Source of the DNA: Candidatus Saccharimonadia bacterium
GTDB taxonomy: Bacteria; Patescibacteriota; SICC01
Direction of reading: 5' to 3'
NCBI GenBank assembly: GCA_025449535.1
Contig: JANWJF010000001.1
Coordinates: 303,344-367,343 of the forward strand
DNA length: 64,000 nt
Shown here: in pieces, positions 14,395 through 64,000 of the stretch
Numbering within the stretch: the first letter of the stretch is position 1
Layout of the letters: each line of letters opens with the position of its first letter
The notes under the pieces: generated by a model
Database searches by the model: none
Told to the model about the DNA's origin: nothing
What the model saw: the letters and a program-made list of their open reading frames with translations, nothing else
Translations under genes and position numbers: made by a program

Positions 14395-15593
14395 TCCTCC
14401 CTCAGCACCTTAACCGGCTTGATCCGCGTCGCCCGCCAGGCCGGGTAGAGTCCCGCCAGCACCCCAAGTACCACCGCAAAGCCGATCGACATGACGGCCA
14501 GCTCTGGCGTAAGCAGGAACAGCTCGAGGCCTTGCTGCTTGGTGATCGCATTGACGACGGCGGTCAGCGCCGCGCTGCCGAGGAACCCGAGGACGCCGCC
14601 GATCAGTCCGATCAATCCGGTCTCCGTGACCGTCTCCTTGAGGATGTGTCGCGCCCGGGCGCCGACCACCCGCTTCACGCCGATCTCCTTGCGCCGTTCG
14701 GTCACGCTCATGATCATCGTGTTGATCACGGACAGGCTGCCGACCAGCACCGCGATCAGGGCGCTGCCGAGGACGATCAGGTTGAACACCGCCGAGGCGT
14801 CCTCCAGCGTCTTCTTCAGTTGGTCCGGCGGCGTGCCGTCCACCCCGCTGATCGTCGACTCGATCTTCTCGGTCAGCTTCGTCGAGTCCACGCCCTCCTC
14901 CGGGAAGACGTTAATGTTCGTCACCAGTTCCTCGGTGCTGGTCGTGAACGAGGTGATATCCCGGGAGAGCGCCAGGGCGTCCGTCAGGGTGACCATGTAG
15001 AAGGAGTCCGGATCGGCGGTAGTCCGCTTCAGGATGCCGACCACTTCGAACTGCTTGCCGCGCAACGTGACCGTGTCGCCGACGTCGAGCTGCTTCTTCT
15101 GGACGACGTTCGAGCCGATCACCGTCTTGCCGGTGTCGCCGGCCTTCAGGGCCCGGCCTTCGCCGACCTCAAGCTGGAACTTGTCCTTGGCGGCCTCGGC
15201 TGGCGGCGCACCCTGGATCGTCTCCGGCGAGGACGCCACCGAGAACTCCGCGTCCGGTTCGGCCAGCAGCGACAACGTCGGATACGCCCGGTCCACGCCG
15301 TCGATCACCTCGATCCGGTCGGTGATACTGGACGGCAGCTGCGGCCCCACCGCGAACGGCCCGCCGAAGCCACCGCTGTCCTTAGTGACCAGGATCCGGC
15401 TGCTGAAGTAATCGATGCCGACCTGGATCGACTTGCTGAGGCTCTGCGACAACGCGCCCATCGTGGTCAGCGCGAAGATGCCGATCCCGATACCGAAGAT
15501 GGTCAGGGCGGATCGTGCCTTGCGGCGCCAGATGTTCCGGAGCGCTTCTCTCACAAGGGTTATTGTACCAAGTGGCGTATGATTGGTGCGCAT
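14391..15593 (-). CDS. ABC transporter permease, MacB/FtsX family, with a large periplasmic domain.
   Basis: N-terminal TM helix, a roughly 230-aa extracytoplasmic domain, then the C-terminal FtsX 3-TM bundle ending YPAWRATRIKPVKVLREE. An alternative GTG start lies at 15554. Confidence 0.8.
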   Translation of the reverse strand: MRTNHTPLGTITLVREALRNIWRRKARSALTIFGIGIGIFALTTMGALSQSLSKSIQVGIDYFSSRILVTKDSGGFGGPFAVGPQLPSSITDRIEVIDGVDRAYPTLSLLAEPDAEFSVASSPETIQGAPPAEAAKDKFQLEVGEGRALKAGDTGKTVIGSNVVQKKQLDVGDTVTLRGKQFEVVGILKRTTADPDSFYMVTLTDALALSRDITSFTTSTEELVTNINVFPEEGVDSTKLTEKIESTISGVDGTPPDQLKKTLEDASAVFNLIVLGSALIAVLVGSLSVINTMIMSVTERRKEIGVKRVVGARARHILKETVTETGLIGLIGGVLGFLGSAALTAVVNAITKQQGLELFLLTPELAVMSIGFAVVLGVLAGLYPAWRATRIKPVKVLREE

Positions 15594-16074
15594 GAATGGT
15601 CAAACTGTCGAGATGGCGAACGTTCCAGATAGGACCCGACTGACCTTAGACGTTGTCCGTCAATTAGAAATCATCGCCCTCGCCGAGGCCCTGGTGAATG
15701 CGCGGAGGATCGAGGACGAAGAGTCCCATGATTATTTCATTGAGCAGATTGCCAGGAGCGCGGCCAGTTCCGGTGAATACGAAGTCGCACGGTCCATCGC
15801 CCGGGAAGCCAAAGAATCACAGGTGACCGCATCGCTTGAAGCAAGCTTCGCGCGACAGGAGACCGATAGCGCGACGGAGGAAAATGACGAGGTGTTCGTA
15901 CCGGAACCGACGGATCCGGAACGGGATACCAATCGTTGGTTGGAAATCGCGACGCTGTTCGGAAGTCCTCGCGAAGAAGATGGCACCGTGGCGGCCATCG
16001 CCGACCTGATTCCAACAGATGACATGACCGGCTTGGAGCTATTCCAGACGGTGCTTGAGGCGGAAACGGCATAA
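15589..16074 (+). CDS. Acidic hypothetical protein (about 160 aa).
   Basis: ORF with high GC3, divergent from the ABC operon. No recognisable domain. Confidence 0.4.
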   Translation, partial: RMNGQTVEMANVPDRTRLTLDVVRQLEIIALAEALVNARRIEDEESHDYFIEQIARSAASSGEYEVARSIAREAKESQVTASLEASFARQETDSATEENDEVFVPEPTDPERDTNRWLEIATLFGSPREEDGTVAAIADLIPTDDMTGLELFQTVLEAETA

Positions 16075-37412: not shown

Positions 37413-37892
37413 TTACGACTCGTACCAGAACGCGTCGGTCCGGCGGATGGTGAACGCGTAGGCGCCGGCCAGCCCGGATACCACGAGCAGCATCCAAAGC
37501 GGCCAGAGCGGCTGCGGCTCCCTTGTCGCACCGGCTACTTCCACCTTGGTCGTAGCGGGATTGACCGTGGCTGGCTTCTTTTCCTTGACTGCCGACTTCT
37601 TCTTTTCAGGCTCGCTCACGGCCTGCTGGTCAGTCTGGGATGCGGATTGTACTTGGCTTGAATTGAAATTCGTTTGGGGCGGTGCTGCTTGAGCATTCTT
37701 TTGTACAGCATGGCTGGTACTACCAGTACTTGGAGGTCGGCCACTGCAGTCAGGAGGACCGTAATACACTGGGTCACCCCCACAGTTCGTCACGAATTGA
37801 ACCGGCTCCTCGGCTTGCGCCGTACCCACGCCGACTACCCCCGCGAGCAGGAACGCGAAAAGGACGGCAGATATGTTTCGGGCTTTCTTCAT
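37413..37892 (-). CDS. Secreted protein (159 aa) with a signal peptide, a Cys-containing N-terminal module and a C-terminal TM anchor.
   Basis: Signal peptide MKKARNISAVLFAFLLAGVVGVGTAQA. C-terminal hydrophobic segment plus RRTD. Immediately upstream of the Cys-rich gene. Confidence 0.55.
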   Translation of the reverse strand: MKKARNISAVLFAFLLAGVVGVGTAQAEEPVQFVTNCGGDPVYYGPPDCSGRPPSTGSTSHAVQKNAQAAPPQTNFNSSQVQSASQTDQQAVSEPEKKKSAVKEKKPATVNPATTKVEVAGATREPQPLWPLWMLLVVSGLAGAYAFTIRRTDAFWYES

Positions 37893-37965
37893 CTGTCGGT
37901 CGTCATCAGGCCATTTATGCCTGAGCAATGGGACTATACGCTCGTGTTCACGCGATTGCAAGGGA

Positions 37966-38557: not shown

Positions 38558-39397
38558 TCAGTTCCGGAGTCGCCGTCGCGTGGCTGCGTACGCGCCGATG
38601 GAAACCAGCGTGGTGCCCAGACCGGCCAGCGAACCAAGTCCCGTGTCCGCAAAGCTGAGCGGGACAATGCTGCCGCCCGTGGCCGGGTCTGACGGATCAC
38701 TCACGCTTCCTTGGGAGTTCACGCCCGGATCATCGGTCGGATCGGGACTCCCTTGGGGATCCACGGTCGGGTCGGGATCAGGACTTCCCTGCGGGTCTGC
38801 GGTGGGATCCGGAGTCGGGGTGGGATCAGGACTTCCCTGCGGGTCTGCGGTCGGGTCAGGGGTAGGAGTGTCCGAGGGGGTTTCGGTGGGGGTCGGGGTC
38901 GGTTCCGGAGTCGGGGTACTTTCCACCTCTACCGTAGGAGTCGGGGTGGGGGTTTCGGTTGGAGTAGGAGTGTCGCTCGGTGTAGGCGTGGCAGAGGGAG
39001 TCGGGGTCGCAGAGGGACTCGGCGTGGTATAGATCAGGCAGTAGTGGATGTGGCTCAGCGCAGGAACCTGATTGCCACCATTCAGGGGAGTCACGCCAAT
39101 ACCAACCAAATAGTCGTACGTAGCTCCATTACCCCCTCCGTACAACTCGACCGTGCCGCTGATTCCGTCCTCCACGTTCCAAACCACTGTACCGGAGCCG
39201 GCCGGGGTCTCAGTGAACGTTATCGTAACCCCGTTGATTACTATCGAACCGTCGCCGCTCTCGGCCACCTTCGCGCAGCCGGGCCGGGTCTCGTTGTGGG
39301 CAAACGCGATCGTTCCAAACATTGTCGCCCCTACAAACACGGCGGCTGCCAGCAAGGCAGGCACCAACCGCTTTCGATATATCGCTCGTTCGCTCAT
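38558..39397 (-). CDS. Sortase substrate: secreted protein with a Thr/Pro-rich stalk and a C-terminal sorting signal (LSFADTG, then a hydrophobic helix, then RRRLRN).
   Basis: Signal peptide. About 90 aa of (TP)n repeats. The LAxTG-like FADTG motif precedes a TM segment and a cationic tail. Confidence 0.75.
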   Translation of the reverse strand: MSERAIYRKRLVPALLAAAVFVGATMFGTIAFAHNETRPGCAKVAESGDGSIVINGVTITFTETPAGSGTVVWNVEDGISGTVELYGGGNGATYDYLVGIGVTPLNGGNQVPALSHIHYCLIYTTPSPSATPTPSATPTPSDTPTPTETPTPTPTVEVESTPTPEPTPTPTETPSDTPTPDPTADPQGSPDPTPTPDPTADPQGSPDPDPTVDPQGSPDPTDDPGVNSQGSVSDPSDPATGGSIVPLSFADTGLGSLAGLGTTLVSIGAYAATRRRLRN

Positions 39398-42279: not shown

Positions 42280-42293
42280 GTACGGTTTGGGTG

Positions 42294-42366
42294 TGCCCCG
42301 GGAGGGTCTCGAACCCCCGACACATGGGTTAAAAGCCCACTGCTCTGCCAACTGAGCTACCGGGGC
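42294..42366 (-). tRNA. tRNA-Lys (anticodon UUU). CCA not encoded.
   Basis: Folded by hand from the reverse complement. Acceptor GCCCCGG/CCGGGGC, D-arm GCTC-AGTTGGCA-GAGC, anticodon stem GTGGG/CCCAT with loop CTTTTAA, T-arm GGGGG-TTCGAGA-CCCTC, discriminator A. Confidence 0.85.
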
Positions 42367-42496: not shown

Positions 42497-43024
42497 TTAC
42501 TCTTCTTCGGGATCGTTCACGAACATCATCACGACGATCGGCAGCACCGCCCATATGAAGAGCGCCGTGTTCGTGGCGAAGAGGTTGCTCGTGAACGGCA
42601 GCAGTCCGGCCTGTCGCGCCTCAGGCACGAACGACAGCACTATCGCCACCAGCAGACCGGCGTGCAGGATCGAGAACGCGATGATCTGCCAGGCCTTGCC
42701 TTGGACTTCCTGGGCCGCGAAGGCCTTGCGGAGCGCCGAGTTGGACAGGAAGAAGAAGATCAGGAGCATCGTGGCGATGAACGCCGTGATCTGGACGATG
42801 AAGAACGGGCTGGAGCCGACCGTCACCGATTGGGAGCCTTGCAGGAACGGCGCCGTCTCGACCAGCGCCAGCGCCATGTAGGTGCTGATCAGCAGTACCA
42901 TGATCCGCGACCGCCCCAGCGTGAAGCCGTAGACGAACGTCGCGACGATGAAGAACAAAAAGATGAACAAATCCCAGCTGGGGCTGTTTACATCAAGTCC
43001 GGTCAAGAATTGTACGGGTATCAT
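42497..43024 (-). CDS. Polytopic membrane protein (175 aa).
   Basis: Five to six hydrophobic helices, high GC3. Confidence 0.55.
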   Translation of the reverse strand: MIPVQFLTGLDVNSPSWDLFIFLFFIVATFVYGFTLGRSRIMVLLISTYMALALVETAPFLQGSQSVTVGSSPFFIVQITAFIATMLLIFFFLSNSALRKAFAAQEVQGKAWQIIAFSILHAGLLVAIVLSFVPEARQAGLLPFTSNLFATNTALFIWAVLPIVVMMFVNDPEEE

Positions 43025-43107
43025 GTTTCTTTTTGCCCCTGGGCGGTTTTCCCAAAGTTAGTCTCATACTATACGCCTGAGGCGCCAAAGCACAACAACC
43101 GAACAAG

Positions 43108-43194
43108 AGAACAAAATCAAGAAGCGTCCAAGAGCCGCGGGAGCGATGATGGACGCTTCGGGGTGGCTTCCCCGGCCGGATTGCCGGGGAAGCC
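43108..43194 (-). terminator. Tandem hairpins followed by a U-tract downstream of the 43204..43836 gene: a perfect 11-bp stem GGCTTCCCCGG/CCGGGGAAGCC, then GAAGCGTCC...GGACGCTTC, then TTGATTTTGTT.
   Basis: Seen directly on the minus strand immediately after the stop at 43204. Confidence 0.55.
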
Positions 43195-43203
43195 GAAAGG
43201 CCG

Positions 43204-43836
43204 CTATTGGTGCTTGATGGCAAGATAGTCGATGTCCGGTTTCACCATGTCGGCACTACCAACATGCAGGCTTGAACCTTTCATGATGGGTATGGCGCGA
43301 GATCCCCCTTTGGATCCCGGCAACGTCCCTACCGTTCCCAACACACCGACGGGCTTTCTGTCGAACATCCAGGGATGTTCGATGTAGCAAAAGATCAGCT
43401 CCTCGAGCACTGCCGGACGCAATTTATGACGTACCGTTTCTTCTCGCAGTTGCTTTGACTCGATCGAACCTGATCGAACTGTTACCAGCCTGGCCCTGTG
43501 CCACCCAGGACTCACAACGAAGGGCGCTGCGTCTGGCCAGTCGTGCTTTCGGAACTCGTCCGTTAGCTCGATTCCAGGCGTTCGAAGCAATCGTGCCAGT
43601 TCGTCATGAGGGGGTCCCTCTACCGGGAACGCGAACGGGTCGTCGGCGGTCGCTAGTACCAACAGGTCCGCGATTTTCTCAGCAAGACCCTCCTCGCTGC
43701 GCAATCGCAGAAAGTGCTCCCCCGTGCCGCCGAGGTCGCTGACCGCATGAGCAATTCTTCTCGCAACTTCGTAGTCTGCACCGAAGCCGAGTTCCTTCAG
43801 GATAGATATTCCTGTGTCAGGCATTTCTTTCTCCAC
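43204..43836 (-). CDS. Hypothetical protein (210 aa) with atypical composition and codons (AGA, ATA, about 54% GC).
   Basis: Intact ORF with its own terminator and an upstream repeat array. No domain recognised. Confidence 0.45.
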   Translation of the reverse strand: MEKEMPDTGISILKELGFGADYEVARRIAHAVSDLGGTGEHFLRLRSEEGLAEKIADLLVLATADDPFAFPVEGPPHDELARLLRTPGIELTDEFRKHDWPDAAPFVVSPGWHRARLVTVRSGSIESKQLREETVRHKLRPAVLEELIFCYIEHPWMFDRKPVGVLGTVGTLPGSKGGSRAIPIMKGSSLHVGSADMVKPDIDYLAIKHQ

Positions 43837-43844
43837 TCTCAGGC

Positions 43845-43935
43845 GTACTGCGTGCCCTACACGAGGGTTACAGCGTACCTGTTCCGATACTTTCGCTGCG
43901 TACTCCGTGACTACAGGAGCGTACAGCCTATTGTT
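43845..43935. repeat. Four tandem iteron-like direct repeats of about 22-26 bp sharing a GCGTAC-N9-10-TAC core, immediately upstream of the 43204..43836 gene.
   Basis: GCGTACtgcgtgcccTAC, GCGTACctgttccgaTAC, GCGTACtccgtgacTAC, GCGTACagccTAT. Spacing of about two helical turns. Confidence 0.5.
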
Positions 43936-44044
43936 GCCTTGGCGGTTGCCGCAGCGGTCGACGAACGAGACTCGCGCGCCCGCCGCTACGGCTTCGCGAT
44001 GTTAACGAGCCGATAAAAATACCACCACTTGGCTTTTTTATCAA

Positions 44045-45226: not shown

Positions 45227-46264
45227 TCAGAACGGCAAGCCGAGGATCTTCGGGTCCACTACCATCCCGAACAGCATCCCGACCACCAGCGCCGCCAGGA
45301 CCATCAGCACGATGATGATGTTCTTCACGGACGCCGAGGCGTAGCTGGCGTAGGCCGCCAGGTTGGGCGGCTTGATTGAGCCGGCGATCATACCGATCAC
45401 GAATCCAGTGAACGCGCTCCAGCCGAAGGCGGCAGCGGGTTGGCCGGAAGCGGTCAGGATCACGCCGAGTCCGGCGCCGACGAACGCGCCCACTGCGCCG
45501 ACCTCGGCGCCCCGGACCAGCGTGTAGAACAGGTTGAACCGGCCGGCCCCGGAGCGGAGCTTGTCGACCGTGTCGCCGTCGGAACCGGCCACCGCGCCGG
45601 CCAGCACGCCGAGCAGGATTAGCGGCAGGGTGAACGCCTTGGTATCCGCGGCGGCGTCGATCGATCCGCCGAGCAGCCCGCCGTAGTACGCCAGGCCGAG
45701 GCTCATCAGGATCGTCCGCGCCAAGGTGTAGCTCCGTCCCAGCCAGCCCGTCCCCAGGAACGACTCCACCTTGAAGTTGTAGTCCGCTCCCCACAGCAAG
45801 CCGACCAAGAGGCCCGGGATCGCGCCCTGCACCGCTTCCGACACAAGCAGCTTGGATTCGGTCAGGAATCCGAGCGCCGCCGCTAGCAGACCGCCGGCCA
45901 GCGCCGCGATCAGCCCGAACATGAACGTCCGGAGCAACGCCGCGCGGAGCAACGCCCGGCGGTACGGGCTTTCCGCCGCCGCCGCCTCGGCCTGGGTCGC
46001 CCCGGACGGAGCGCCGCCGGCCGGGGCGGGTCCGCCATGCCGGACACCGGTATCGGAGAGCGACTGGTCGTAGTCGGCACGCTTCAGTGAATCCGACAGC
46101 GTGCCATACGCCTCGTTGATCTTCTTGAACCGCTCCTCAGCCTCCGGTCCTTTGTTGACGTCGGGATGGTACTCTCGCGCCAACGTCCGGTACGCCTTCT
46201 TGATGTCGTCTTCCGTGGCTGTCCGTGAGACGCCGAGAATGCCGTAATAGGTTTCCTTCGCCAT
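45227..46264 (-). CDS. J-domain protein fused to a Gly/Ala/Leu-rich polytopic membrane domain. A DnaJ-like membrane co-chaperone.
   Basis: N-terminal J domain ([34 protein letters not shown]) followed by about 250 aa of hydrophobic helices. Confidence 0.8.
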
Positions 46265-62986: not shown

Positions 62987-63180
62987 GTGACGGCGCTCCT
63001 GTTAAGTGATGCCATGGTACCCCATCAGGCCTTTCGTGTCAATGAAGGAGTTTATCCGAATAGAACATTTTTCCGCTAACCCCATGCAAGAAGGAAGCCA
63101 GATGACTTCCCGTAATCGTCATACGTTTGACAACCGGAGTAGAAGCCCATATTAAGTAAGCAGCCGGAACATCTCAAAAA

Positions 63181-64000
63181 ATGAAAAACGCCATCGAACG
63201 AATACGCACGATACGCTTTCCCTTCCGGGCGTCGATTGCCGCTGTCATCGCGATAGGCATTACTGCCGCAATCGTGACATTTGCCGCCCCGGGGCAATAT
63301 CAGAACAAGTACCCCAACATCATTTACGTGATCACGGATGACCAGACGTTCGAGTCGCTCAACAAGATGAAGTTCCTCACCCAACAACCGGATTGGATCA
63401 AGTTCAGCAGGGCGTATGCGAACACCCCAATCTGTTGTCCCGCCCGCGCTACGCTGTTGTCCGGTCAGTATTCCCACCACACGGGGGTAGAAACCAACAA
63501 GGAAGGCTGGAAGTTCAACGACCGATCGACCGTCGCCACTTGGCTCAAGGTCGTCGGGTACCGGACGGGCTTCGTCGGCAAGTACTTGAACGAATACCCG
63601 TGGAGCGAGCCGGGTACTTTCGTACCGCAAAGCGCGGTAAGGCCGGCCAACTACCGCCCACCGGGGTGGAATACATGGGTCGCGTTTTCCGGACCGCCCG
63701 GCTACTTGAACTACACGCTCAATATAAATGGCACACTGGTCAATAAGGGTGGCGAGGAGGCGGACTACTCCACCGATGTCCTGACTGACCAAGCGGCCCG
63801 GTTCATCTACGACAACAGCCGCGGACCGGCTCGCGAGCAACATCTGTTCCTGGTGTATGCCCCGTACGCGCCGCATACTCCGTCCACGCCGGCCGAACGT
63901 CATAGCGGTCTGTTTAAAGGCCTGAGCATTCCGCACGCTCCGAACTACAACGAGACGGACATTAGTGATAAGCCGAAGTGGTTACAGGAAAACCACGCGC
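63181..64000 (+). CDS. Sulfatase (formylglycine-dependent arylsulfatase family), 5' part only. The gene continues past the window edge.
   Basis: Manual translation from the ATG at 63181 found no stop to 64000. Signal peptide/TM, YVITDDQ, CCPARATLLSG (C-x-P-x-R FGly motif). Absent from the ORF track for lack of an in-window stop. Confidence 0.7.
   Translation, partial: MKNAIERIRTIRFPFRASIAAVIAIGITAAIVTFAAPGQYQNKYPNIIYVITDDQTFESLNKMKFLTQQPDWIKFSRAYANTPICCPARATLLSGQYSHHTGVETNKEGWKFNDRSTVATWLKVVGYRTGFVGKYLNEYPWSEPGTFVPQSAVRPANYRPPGWNTWVAFSGPPGYLNYTLNINGTLVNKGGEEADYSTDVLTDQAARFIYDNSRGPAREQHLFLVYAPYAPHTPSTPAERHSGLFKGLSIPHAPNYNETDISDKPKWLQENHA

Follow-up and report, generated by a model that had tools for sequence, protein, structure and literature searches.

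A proposed swap-prone single-gene cassette beside dnaJ in a Patescibacteria genome probably encodes a hypervariable C-type-lectin-like relative of retroelement target proteins

In this study we analysed a 64,000-nt stretch of DNA (the window) from the high-GC genome of a Candidatus Saccharimonadia bacterium (contig JANWJF010000001.1), a member of the Patescibacteria, or candidate phyla radiation (CPR). Between dnaJ and TM175, the gene for a 175-aa conserved membrane protein, lies a region at 43100..44044 with one gene on the minus strand, whose product is called P0001. With a probability of about 0.6, this region is a single-gene, swap-prone cassette with a structured leader, and P0001 is a hypervariable protein of the C-type-lectin-like (CLec) fold that belongs, without a retroelement of its own, to a CPR family of targets of diversity-generating retroelements (DGRs). 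A DGR comprises a template repeat, an Avd accessory gene and a reverse transcriptase. P0001 would be a ligand-binding protein whose alleles come to differ by a route other than a DGR: most likely the whole coding sequence (CDS) would be replaced by recombination through conserved non-coding flanks, or else be under very strong diversifying selection, with occasional loss of the cassette. The CPR bacteria live as episymbionts and have tiny genomes, in which DGRs are unusually abundant; the small targets of these DGRs are without known function (PMC8144416). Feature coordinates are collected in Table 1, and the cassette gene at the dnaJ/TM175 site is called X in all lineages.

P0001 has no curated family match in Pfam, NCBIfam, PHROGs, PADLOC or the PDB sequences. 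An alignment of 33 family members found no match in the same libraries, and the two neighbour proteins of P0001 gave nothing usable there. A word-indexed search of 5.8 billion proteins retrieved only P0001 itself. When 1.84 billion cluster representatives were searched exhaustively with HMMER, five remote relatives with 31-35% identity were detected, 197-210 aa in length. A profile search returned 31 proteins of about 200 aa, all hypothetical; few carry names, and those that do are mostly from Patescibacteria, with one from a Rokubacteria metagenome-assembled genome. A profile search with the subgroup added zero new family members. An earlier reading made from the DNA letters alone (the sequence-only reading) had suggested a replication initiator or a partition or regulatory protein, but profile searching found no similarity to Rep, ParB, KfrA or regulator families, and the predicted fold is lectin-like.

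The family consensus ends at its C-terminus in ...W....W....RFAAVRK (the W..W...RFAAVRK signature). This ending is lost in P0001 and its four closest relatives, P0002-P0005, and these five proteins keep the N-terminal block LAHAVSD.GG...H.RRL..E.L...IA..LV and the central ARL...E.ER..LRPA..EL motif. When the family alignment was supplied, AlphaFold gave a model of P0001 with a predicted local distance difference test score (pLDDT) of 85.8, in which a three-helix N-domain precedes a CLec-type C-domain. The single-sequence model had a pLDDT of 34 and was of no use; confidence came only with the family alignment. The C-domain of P0001 is thus predicted to adopt the CLec fold, and the protein has no obvious signal peptide or membrane segment. 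The CLec scaffold is known from DGR variable proteins, namely Mtd of Bordetella phage, TvpA of Treponema, archaeal AvpA and TaqVP of Thermus (PMC5006420, PMC6328139).

Three of the five typical family members examined are linked to a DGR. Profile searching ties P0001 to these three, P0007 (locus L006), P0009 (L028) and P0025 (L029 and L030), each of which adjoins bAvd and RVT_1 genes. In L006, bAvd and then the RVT_1 reverse transcriptase gene follow the P0007 gene, and the last 136 nt of that gene recur 463 nt downstream with 84% identity, as variable and template repeats. Nineteen of the 22 mismatches between the two repeats fall at adenines of the downstream (template) copy. This is the hallmark of a DGR, and P0007 is a genuine DGR target. 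The loci of P0009 and P0025 have the same target-Avd-reverse transcriptase layout as L006, and those of P0019 (L009) and P0023 are without it. The DGR-linked small relatives fit the reported picture of CPR DGR targets as small proteins in which no domain is recognisable (PMC8144416).

No such system accompanies the P0001 gene in the window. A tblastn search with the reverse transcriptase and Avd of L006 gave chance matches only (E > 1), no RVT_1 or bAvd was found among the called genes within ±10 kb of the gene, and blastn detected no second copy or template repeat of 43101-44044 in the window. The RNA-like element that precedes CPR DGR template repeats is also absent from the window. P0001 occurs as a single sequence variant on 11 contigs (6-11 for the one sequence in its 90% cluster), and L001-L003, assembled independently from three samples, match the window with 100% identity over 10-20 kb; the locus therefore shows no sign of present-day diversification. 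For the DGR-linked relatives that were looked up, the numbers of variants per 90% cluster are three (P0007), six (P0009) and one (P0025).

Two observations were made on the loci of the relatives themselves. Directly upstream of the CPR DGR template repeat there is a conserved element of about 210 nt (L006 5728-5945, L028 4718-4940, L029 4735-4960 and L009 5686-5905), which is apparently independently promoted. RNAalifold assigned 51 pairs to it, 22 of them with compensatory changes, from four sequences only, and an Rfam scan of L006 and L009 found no match at E <= 0.1. The CPR DGR RNA may have this element as its structured 5' part. The gene order of L009 4744-6076 is that of L006 4786-7427 (glycosyltransferase, family gene, triose-phosphate isomerase), and L009 retains the structured RNA element, with Avd, the reverse transcriptase and a detectable template repeat missing. 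L009 looks like a target locus within the typical family branch from which the DGR has been lost.

Downstream of the P0001 stop codon there are two hairpins. Both hairpins of the tandem-hairpin terminator proposed in the sequence-only reading are borne out, the second having a T-rich run on the sense strand; one arm had been given a perfect 11-bp stem, and the stem is indeed perfect but is 12 bp long. The inner stem of hairpin 1 is kept in L004 and L010, where the loop is AACCCG and the outer stem pairs covary, and L011 is without this hairpin. Hairpin 2 is kept with compensatory changes in L004, L010, L011 and L014; its stem is GAAGCGCUC/GAGCGCUUC in L004 and L010 and GAAGCGCCCA/UGGGCGCUUC in L011. 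A consensus terminator scanner called neither of them. The order stop codon, hairpin 1, terminator hairpin with U tract is found in the family members examined, DGR-linked or not, and in the DGR-linked relatives a hairpin follows the variable repeat at the position of hairpin 1. In phage BPP-1, efficient DGR homing requires a hairpin/cruciform that directly follows the variable repeat, its stem mattering as structure and its loop being sequence-specific (PMC3240598). Hairpin 1 is a family-wide element at the place where DGR targets carry the homing hairpin and, by analogy, may be a vestige of such a site; hairpin 2 is a conventional intrinsic terminator. A sul1 RNA candidate at 43148-43193 (+), on the strand opposite hairpin 1, scored 21.6 bits against a gathering threshold of 36.2 (E 0.97) and was judged a chance match.

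These features raise the question of whether P0001 is an active target of a DGR elsewhere in the genome, with its 3' end as the variable repeat and hairpin 1 as a functional homing hairpin. Such a reading would fit the typical family members, which are DGR targets, the GC-rich hairpin 9 nt after the stop as in the DGR-linked relatives, the hairpin needed for efficient BPP-1 homing (PMC3240598), and the C-terminal 40 residues, which are among the least conserved (20% mean identity). We regard it as quite unlikely, because the DNA is 100% identical and the protein a single variant across several samples, the divergence of the orthologues spans the whole CDS and not just its 3' end, the C-terminal signature is lost, and the 64-kb window contains no reverse transcriptase, Avd or template repeat. 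A member of the family that has parted from its DGR accounts better for these data.

The cassette has a fixed position. The order dnaJ, X, TM175 is found in L004 (P0003), L010 (P0002), L011 (P0005) and the contig of P0004, and L014 carries the 3' end of the module. The X reading frame is intact and of similar length (197-210 aa) in five lineages. Genome and metagenome searches with TM175 also found empty sites, in which dnaJ is directly followed by TM175, in L015, L012, L013 and L016-L020. L015 sits inside the X-bearing clade, because its TM175 is 94% identical to that of L004 and 93% to that of L010, and it has just 95 bp between the dnaJ stop and the TM175 start. The TM175 scans yielded only two further loci within the clade (L014 and L015), and the leader alignment stays at four sequences. 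The TM175 proteins of the lineages that share X are 76-78% identical. The cassette is thus old, being common to such lineages, and within the clade it has been lost or independently gained. The sequence-only reading had seen in it a small acquired module or remnant; as a recent acquisition this does not hold, since the position is occupied by a homologue in four other lineages.

Because of the empty site of L015, the insertion point is placed by sequence comparison between the dnaJ stop and the TM175 promoter, away from the tRNA. The TM175 promoter, which is near-identical in L004, L010, L014 and the empty-site locus L015, lies outside the module. The tRNA-Lys gene is about 840 bp from the cassette with TM175 in between, and a tRNA follows TM175 in L004 and L010 too; no integrase was found among the neighbouring genes of the cassette. 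The proximity to tRNA-Lys, given earlier as 900 bp, is therefore real, but a 175-aa membrane-protein gene intervenes, and an element integrated at tRNA-Lys is contradicted by this gene, by the lack of an integrase and by the position of the L015 empty site at dnaJ/TM175. The L010 module is flanked by a short direct repeat, ctaTTTGTCG ... gctaTTTGTGCG. As an observation of its own, the cassette is bracketed by TTTGTsCG direct repeats that belong to the -35 regions of the promoters of X and TM175 (L010 82-92/952-962; L004 1877-1886/2783-2790; L015 925-937). Deletion between such bracketing short direct repeats could have produced the L015 empty site.

The CDS is hypervariable, and the non-coding flanks stay conserved. 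All ten pairwise identities among the X proteins are 27-33%, regardless of host relatedness; between L004 and L010, for example, the TM175 proteins are 93% identical and the X proteins 29%. At the nucleotide level these two loci are 70-90% identical in the flanking genes, 26-51% in the X CDS and 58-80% in the 3' hairpins. Mean identity along the X protein is highest in the N-domain (38%) and lowest in residues 61-105 (14%) and 166-206 (20%). Point substitution at the rate of the flanks is unable to yield this pattern. We infer that whole alleles are replaced by recombination via the conserved non-coding flanks, or that diversifying selection is very strong.

The composition of the gene is also unusual. 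The sequence-only reading had described a 210-aa gene at 43204..43836 with atypical codons and about 54% GC. The open reading frame (ORF) is real, but the ATG gives a protein of 206 aa, and the GC content is 56.4% (62% for the window). This ATG, at 43824, is a better start than the GTG because it is preceded at 6 nt by GGAG and is also the start in the public annotation; GGAG is found at the equivalent place in the leaders of L004, L010 and L011. The atypical codons are borne out: GC at the three codon positions is 0.64/0.43/0.61, and GC at the third position (GC3) is 0.8-0.9 in the neighbouring genes. GC at the first and second positions (GC1 and GC2) is typical of real genes in the window, with GC3 far lower. 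The X genes have GC3 of 0.58-0.65 in 4/4 lineages and their neighbouring genes 0.76-0.90. Apart from the cassette, low GC3 (0.52-0.63 versus the usual 0.8-0.9) was also seen in the long ORFs 63076-63936 (-), 15583-16074 (+) and 37413-37961 (-), which might likewise be atypical or acquired.

Extreme divergence, low GC3, patchy presence and the lack of a known domain might also be expected of a decaying or non-functional remnant whose leader motifs are neutral leftovers of local duplications, and the numbers of hairpins and motif copies do vary between lineages. This is highly improbable. The frame has stayed intact at 197-210 aa in five lineages with the GC1/GC2 pattern of coding sequence, conservation extends to the N-terminal domain and the ARL...E.ER..LRPA..EL core, and, as the confident fold prediction indicates, the sequence still accords with the family fold. 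Moreover, the ribosome-binding site, the leader hairpin HP-B described below and the terminator have been retained, with compensatory changes.

The promoter-like element of the cassette starts directly after the dnaJ stop codon. TTGnnn-17/18-TAnnnT is found at the equivalent place in L004 (TTGCGC/TACGGT), L010 (TTGTCG/TACGTT) and L011 (TTGCTG/TATTAT), and TTGATA-17-TATTTT in the window presumably works as the cassette promoter. The AT-rich imperfect palindrome that overlaps it is specific to the window, being absent from L004, L010 and L011, and could be a weak dnaJ terminator. With a promoter-like element, leader and terminator of its own, presence and absence among relatives and an atypical composition, the region agrees with the self-contained module of the sequence-only reading.

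Between this element and the start codon, four tandem direct repeats of about 22-26 bp sharing GCGTAC-N9-10-TAC had been proposed as iterons or multi-site regulator binding sites. Four GCGTAC copies do lie on the plus strand (at 43843, 43873, 43898 and 43919), and four within 82 nt occurred in 0/300 first-order Markov simulations of the window. Their spacing, however, is 30, 25 and 21 nt, the full pattern matches only twice, and the copies share essentially just the hexamer and form no tandem units. Tandem Repeats Finder reported nothing in the region, and a repeat search found only a 12-nt two-copy family. The four leaders have three to five GTAsGC copies on the sense strand, spaced 21-23 nt apart in the orthologues, the last a few nt before GGAG; in L004 all four copies read GTAGGC.

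The copies are quasi-palindromic and are better read, from the sequences compared, as the 5' and 3' arms of two leader RNA hairpins, HP-A and HP-B. When two GUACGC copies are set antiparallel, the facing bases are G-C, U·G, A/C, C/A, G·U and C-G, and the flanks of paired copies are complementary. Leader hairpins appear in the RNA folds of all four leaders. HP-B has the form CAGGU-AC-GCUGU-AA-CCCU(cgugu)AGGG-CAC-GCAGU-AC-GCCUG in the window, AGGU-AG-GCUGU-AG-GCUUCGGA(agc)UUCGGAGU-AG-GCAGU-AG-GCCU in L004, GAGGU-AC-GCUGU-AC-GCCU(uaccgu)AGGU-AA-GCAGU-AC-GCCUC in L010 and CGGAU-AC-GCCGC(ccc)GCGGU-AC-GUCCG in L011. It is conserved in all four leaders, with 96% of cells paired and five of 14 pairs changed on both sides. 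In controls in which the 3' partners were slid by 1-3 columns, only 28-42% were paired, with no compensatory pair, and 0/500 shuffles reached the observed score. One compensatory change lies inside the motif, where AUACGC faces GUACGU in L011; base-pairing predicts this, and a protein-binding consensus does not. The symmetric 2x2 loops AC/AC (AG/AG in L004) are closed by invariant U·G and G·U pairs. Since these G·U pairs would be C/A mismatches on the opposite strand, the structure exists on the sense strand only, which favours RNA over a DNA operator. HP-A has a counterpart in L011, GCUGU-CC-GCUCUC...GAGAGU-AC-GCAGC. A third hairpin, HP-0, corresponds in position and base to one in L004 whose interior differs, and is missing from L010 and L011. 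The block GCGTTCCTTAA is shared by L004, L010 and L011. The conserved GCGUUCCUUAA block of the same three leaders is absent from the window, and when masking of the Shine-Dalgarno sequence by this block was examined, the predicted partners differed between leaders.

The hairpins bear directly on the reading of the copies as DNA sites (iterons or a multi-site operator) for the encoded or another regulator, in a replicon or mobile-element remnant integrated at tRNA-Lys. Four same-strand copies are far above chance, their spacings (21-30 nt in the window, 21-23 nt in the orthologues) are near two helical turns, all L004 copies have changed together to GTAGGC as with a co-evolving sequence-specific binder, and the N-terminal three-helix domain has no assigned function. 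Nevertheless, this reading is very improbable. The units have only the hexamer in common, the flanks of paired copies are complementary with compensatory changes even inside the motif, and the invariant G·U pairs make the symmetry strand-specific. The protein has a lectin-like fold and no similarity to replication, partition or regulator proteins, the cassette has no integrase nearby and does not abut the tRNA, and the DGR-linked relatives are without such upstream repeats. What the leaders show comes close to the transcribed leader with conserved structure that the sequence-only reading had itself set against its iterons, except that no known riboswitch is involved: Rfam found no family in the leaders of the window, L004, L010 or L011, and only tRNA passed in the window.

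Three other identities of leader segments were tried and rejected. A CIRCE/HAIR heat-shock operator was sought by eye, but a right half that would match TTAGCGTTC is missing. If the GTAsGCT copies were -10 boxes of a promoter further downstream, a conserved -35 would be expected, and none stands at the right spacing. GUACGC is not a UNCG-type tetraloop, as its flanks do not pair locally and the L004 variant is UAGG, not UNCG.

The structured leader would set the stability or the translation of the mRNA, and a factor recognising the non-canonical loops would probably mediate this. Such recognition is hinted at by L004, in which pairing alone does not account for the change of AC/AC to AG/AG. 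The leader hairpins might instead be an RNA thermometer or a pH sensor that couples the cassette to the heat-shock cluster hrcA-grpE-dnaK...dnaJ. The cassette is immediately downstream of dnaJ in the chaperone cluster, tandem non-canonical pairs weaken the hairpins beside the ribosome-binding site, and A·C mismatches can pair when protonated. We consider this unlikely, since the Shine-Dalgarno sequence is outside HP-B, 5 nt 3' of it, its predicted accessibility differs between orthologues in no consistent way (unpaired probability 0.20-0.60 at 37 C) and hardly moves from 20 to 45 C, and no ROSE, fourU or other Rfam match was found. In addition, the cassette is an insertion at its site, so its chaperone neighbourhood may be a coincidence.

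A more specific version of the preferred reading is tentative, with the odds clearly against it. In it, the locus is independent of DGRs, its CLec binder having descended from DGR targets; the leader block and hairpin 1 with the terminator would be the handles for allele replacement, and expression would be gated by a previously undescribed leader motif. This motif would be a nested hairpin pair with symmetric UACG/UACG (or UAGG/UAGG) loops, in each of which there are four consecutive non-Watson-Crick pairs, and what reads it would be a factor specific to the lineage, or else protonation or temperature. To our knowledge, such a symmetric loop is not a recognised motif.

Several points weigh against the cassette reading as a whole. 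For the protein, the Foldseek E-values for the lectin-like fold are weak (0.03-0.3), and the window in which no DGR was found covers 64 kb of a genome of about 0.8 Mb. With five lineages, gain and loss of the cassette are inseparable, as are allele replacement and rapid divergence in place. The promoter is proposed from consensus and conservation only, and its -35 position shifts between L004 and L010. For the leader, there are four full sequences only, which makes the covariation statistics thin, and the structure was derived from the same sequences; the folding energies of the whole leaders are unexceptional (z +0.1 to -1.9). The Shine-Dalgarno sequence is not consistently sequestered, its partners differing per orthologue. 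Finally, simple pairing does not call for the change from C to G that all four L004 copies show, which would also fit a sequence-specific trans-factor binding RNA or DNA.

If the cassette reading is correct, P0001 and its closest relatives represent a branch of a DGR-target family that left its retroelement and is still extremely variable between close relatives, at a fixed site with conserved regulatory flanks. This would offer a natural comparison of retroelement-driven with recombination- or selection-driven diversification of one scaffold. It would also provide a candidate host-interaction gene in an uncultured lineage and, as a candidate for cis-regulation, a small RNA motif whose tandem non-canonical pairs are unusual. 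The analysis also removes a false lead, in that 43100..44044 appears to be neither a replicon nor a tRNA island.

Table 1. Positions of the cassette features and adjoining elements in the window
Feature	Position	Strand	Description
tRNA-Lys	42293..42366
TM175 gene	42497..43024		conserved membrane protein, 175 aa
TM175 promoter	43068..43095	-	TTGTGC-16-TATAGT, read from sequence; outside the module, marks its 3' boundary
Hairpin 2	43100..43159	-	intrinsic terminator; perfect 10-bp stem GAAGCGUCCA/UGGACGCUUC (43121-43130/43150-43159) and U-rich tail
Hairpin 1	43165..43194	-	perfect 12-bp GC-rich stem (43165-43176/43183-43194), 6-nt loop AAUCCG, 9 nt after the stop
ORF	43204..43836	-	210 codons counted from GTG
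CDS of P0001	43204..43824	-	206 aa; predicted three-helix N-domain (about residues 16-59) and C-type-lectin-like C-domain
Shine-Dalgarno GGAG	43831..43834	-	6 nt before the ATG, read from sequence
HP-B	43840..43881	-	GUACGC copies 43873-43878 and 43843-43848; full-leader fold; ends 5 nt before GGAG
Proposed repeat array	43843..43931	-	sense GTACGC x4 (43919-24, 43898-903, 43873-78, 43843-48) and degenerate ATAGGC (43926-31)
HP-A	43895..43927	-	GCUGU-AC-GCUCC...GGAGU-AC-GCAGC; GUACGC copies 43919-43924 and 43898-43903
HP-0	43948..43992	-	GCCGUAGCGG ... CCGCUGCGGC; minimum-free-energy fold of the leader
AT-rich imperfect palindrome	44012..44042	-	inverted repeat, 13-nt arms, 85% complementary; overlaps the promoter-like element, right after the dnaJ stop
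Promoter-like element	44016..44044	-	-35 TTGATA, 17-nt spacer, -10 TATTTT preceded by TGG; consensus scan

Two further observations concern the surroundings of the cassette. A second J-domain protein of 345 aa (45227-46264, -) is encoded immediately upstream of the canonical dnaJ. The C-terminal two-thirds of this protein are long, glycine/alanine-rich and hydrophobic and look membrane-embedded, and it is also present in the Saccharibacteria locus L012 (1203-2225) and on the P0004 contig. Elsewhere in the window, an imperfect direct repeat at 38756-38870, inside a minus-strand gene, has an offset of 48 nt and 83.6% identity over 67 nt, with clusters of GGGATC and CTGCGG. Tandem Repeats Finder did not call it, and it probably reflects a repeated peptide segment.

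Among known systems, plasmid iterons with their Rep proteins resemble the cassette in that a short motif recurs several times on one strand ahead of a small gene. They differ in that P0001 has no Rep homology and the cassette units are conserved over 6 nt only, irregularly spaced and mutually complementary via their flanks. With cis-regulatory leaders such as ROSE, fourU and protein-binding hairpins, the cassette shares conserved non-canonical hairpins with compensatory changes directly upstream of its ribosome-binding site. Unlike in ROSE and fourU leaders, the Shine-Dalgarno sequence lies outside the hairpin, no consistent masking is predicted, and there is no Rfam match.

For the protein, a structural comparison is the C-terminal domain of Bd2740 of Bdellovibrio bacteriovorus (PDB 8oks), the tip domain of a fibre-like protein. 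The sequence identity to P0001 is 12%, and the Bd2740 domain ends a long fibre protein, whereas P0001 stands alone with 206 aa and a helical N-domain.

Like the DGR target-site hairpin/cruciform of BPP-1 (Guo et al. 2011, PMC3240598), hairpin 1 is a GC-rich stem-loop right after the 3' end of the gene, with a covarying stem and a near-constant loop in the window, L004 and L010. No partner DGR is known for the P0001 gene, however, and hairpin 1 is not found in L011. The BPP-1 element reportedly has a stem of about 8 bp and a 4-nt loop, and hairpin 1 is longer (12 bp, 6-nt loop).

A further comparison is with DGR variable proteins. P0001 differs from them in the absence of a template repeat, Avd and reverse transcriptase within 64 kb, in its invariance between samples, in the loss of the C-terminal signature of diversified members, and in the gene-wide divergence of its orthologues, which is not confined to a variable repeat. 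It resembles Mtd, TvpA, AvpA and TaqVP in its predicted CLec-type C-domain, and the CPR DGR targets (PMC8144416) in being small, with no recognisable domain and no obvious signal peptide. Like DGR target genes, the P0001 gene has a hairpin after its stop codon, and P0001 is homologous to CPR proteins whose genes carry a 3' variable repeat beside a template repeat, Avd and a reverse transcriptase.

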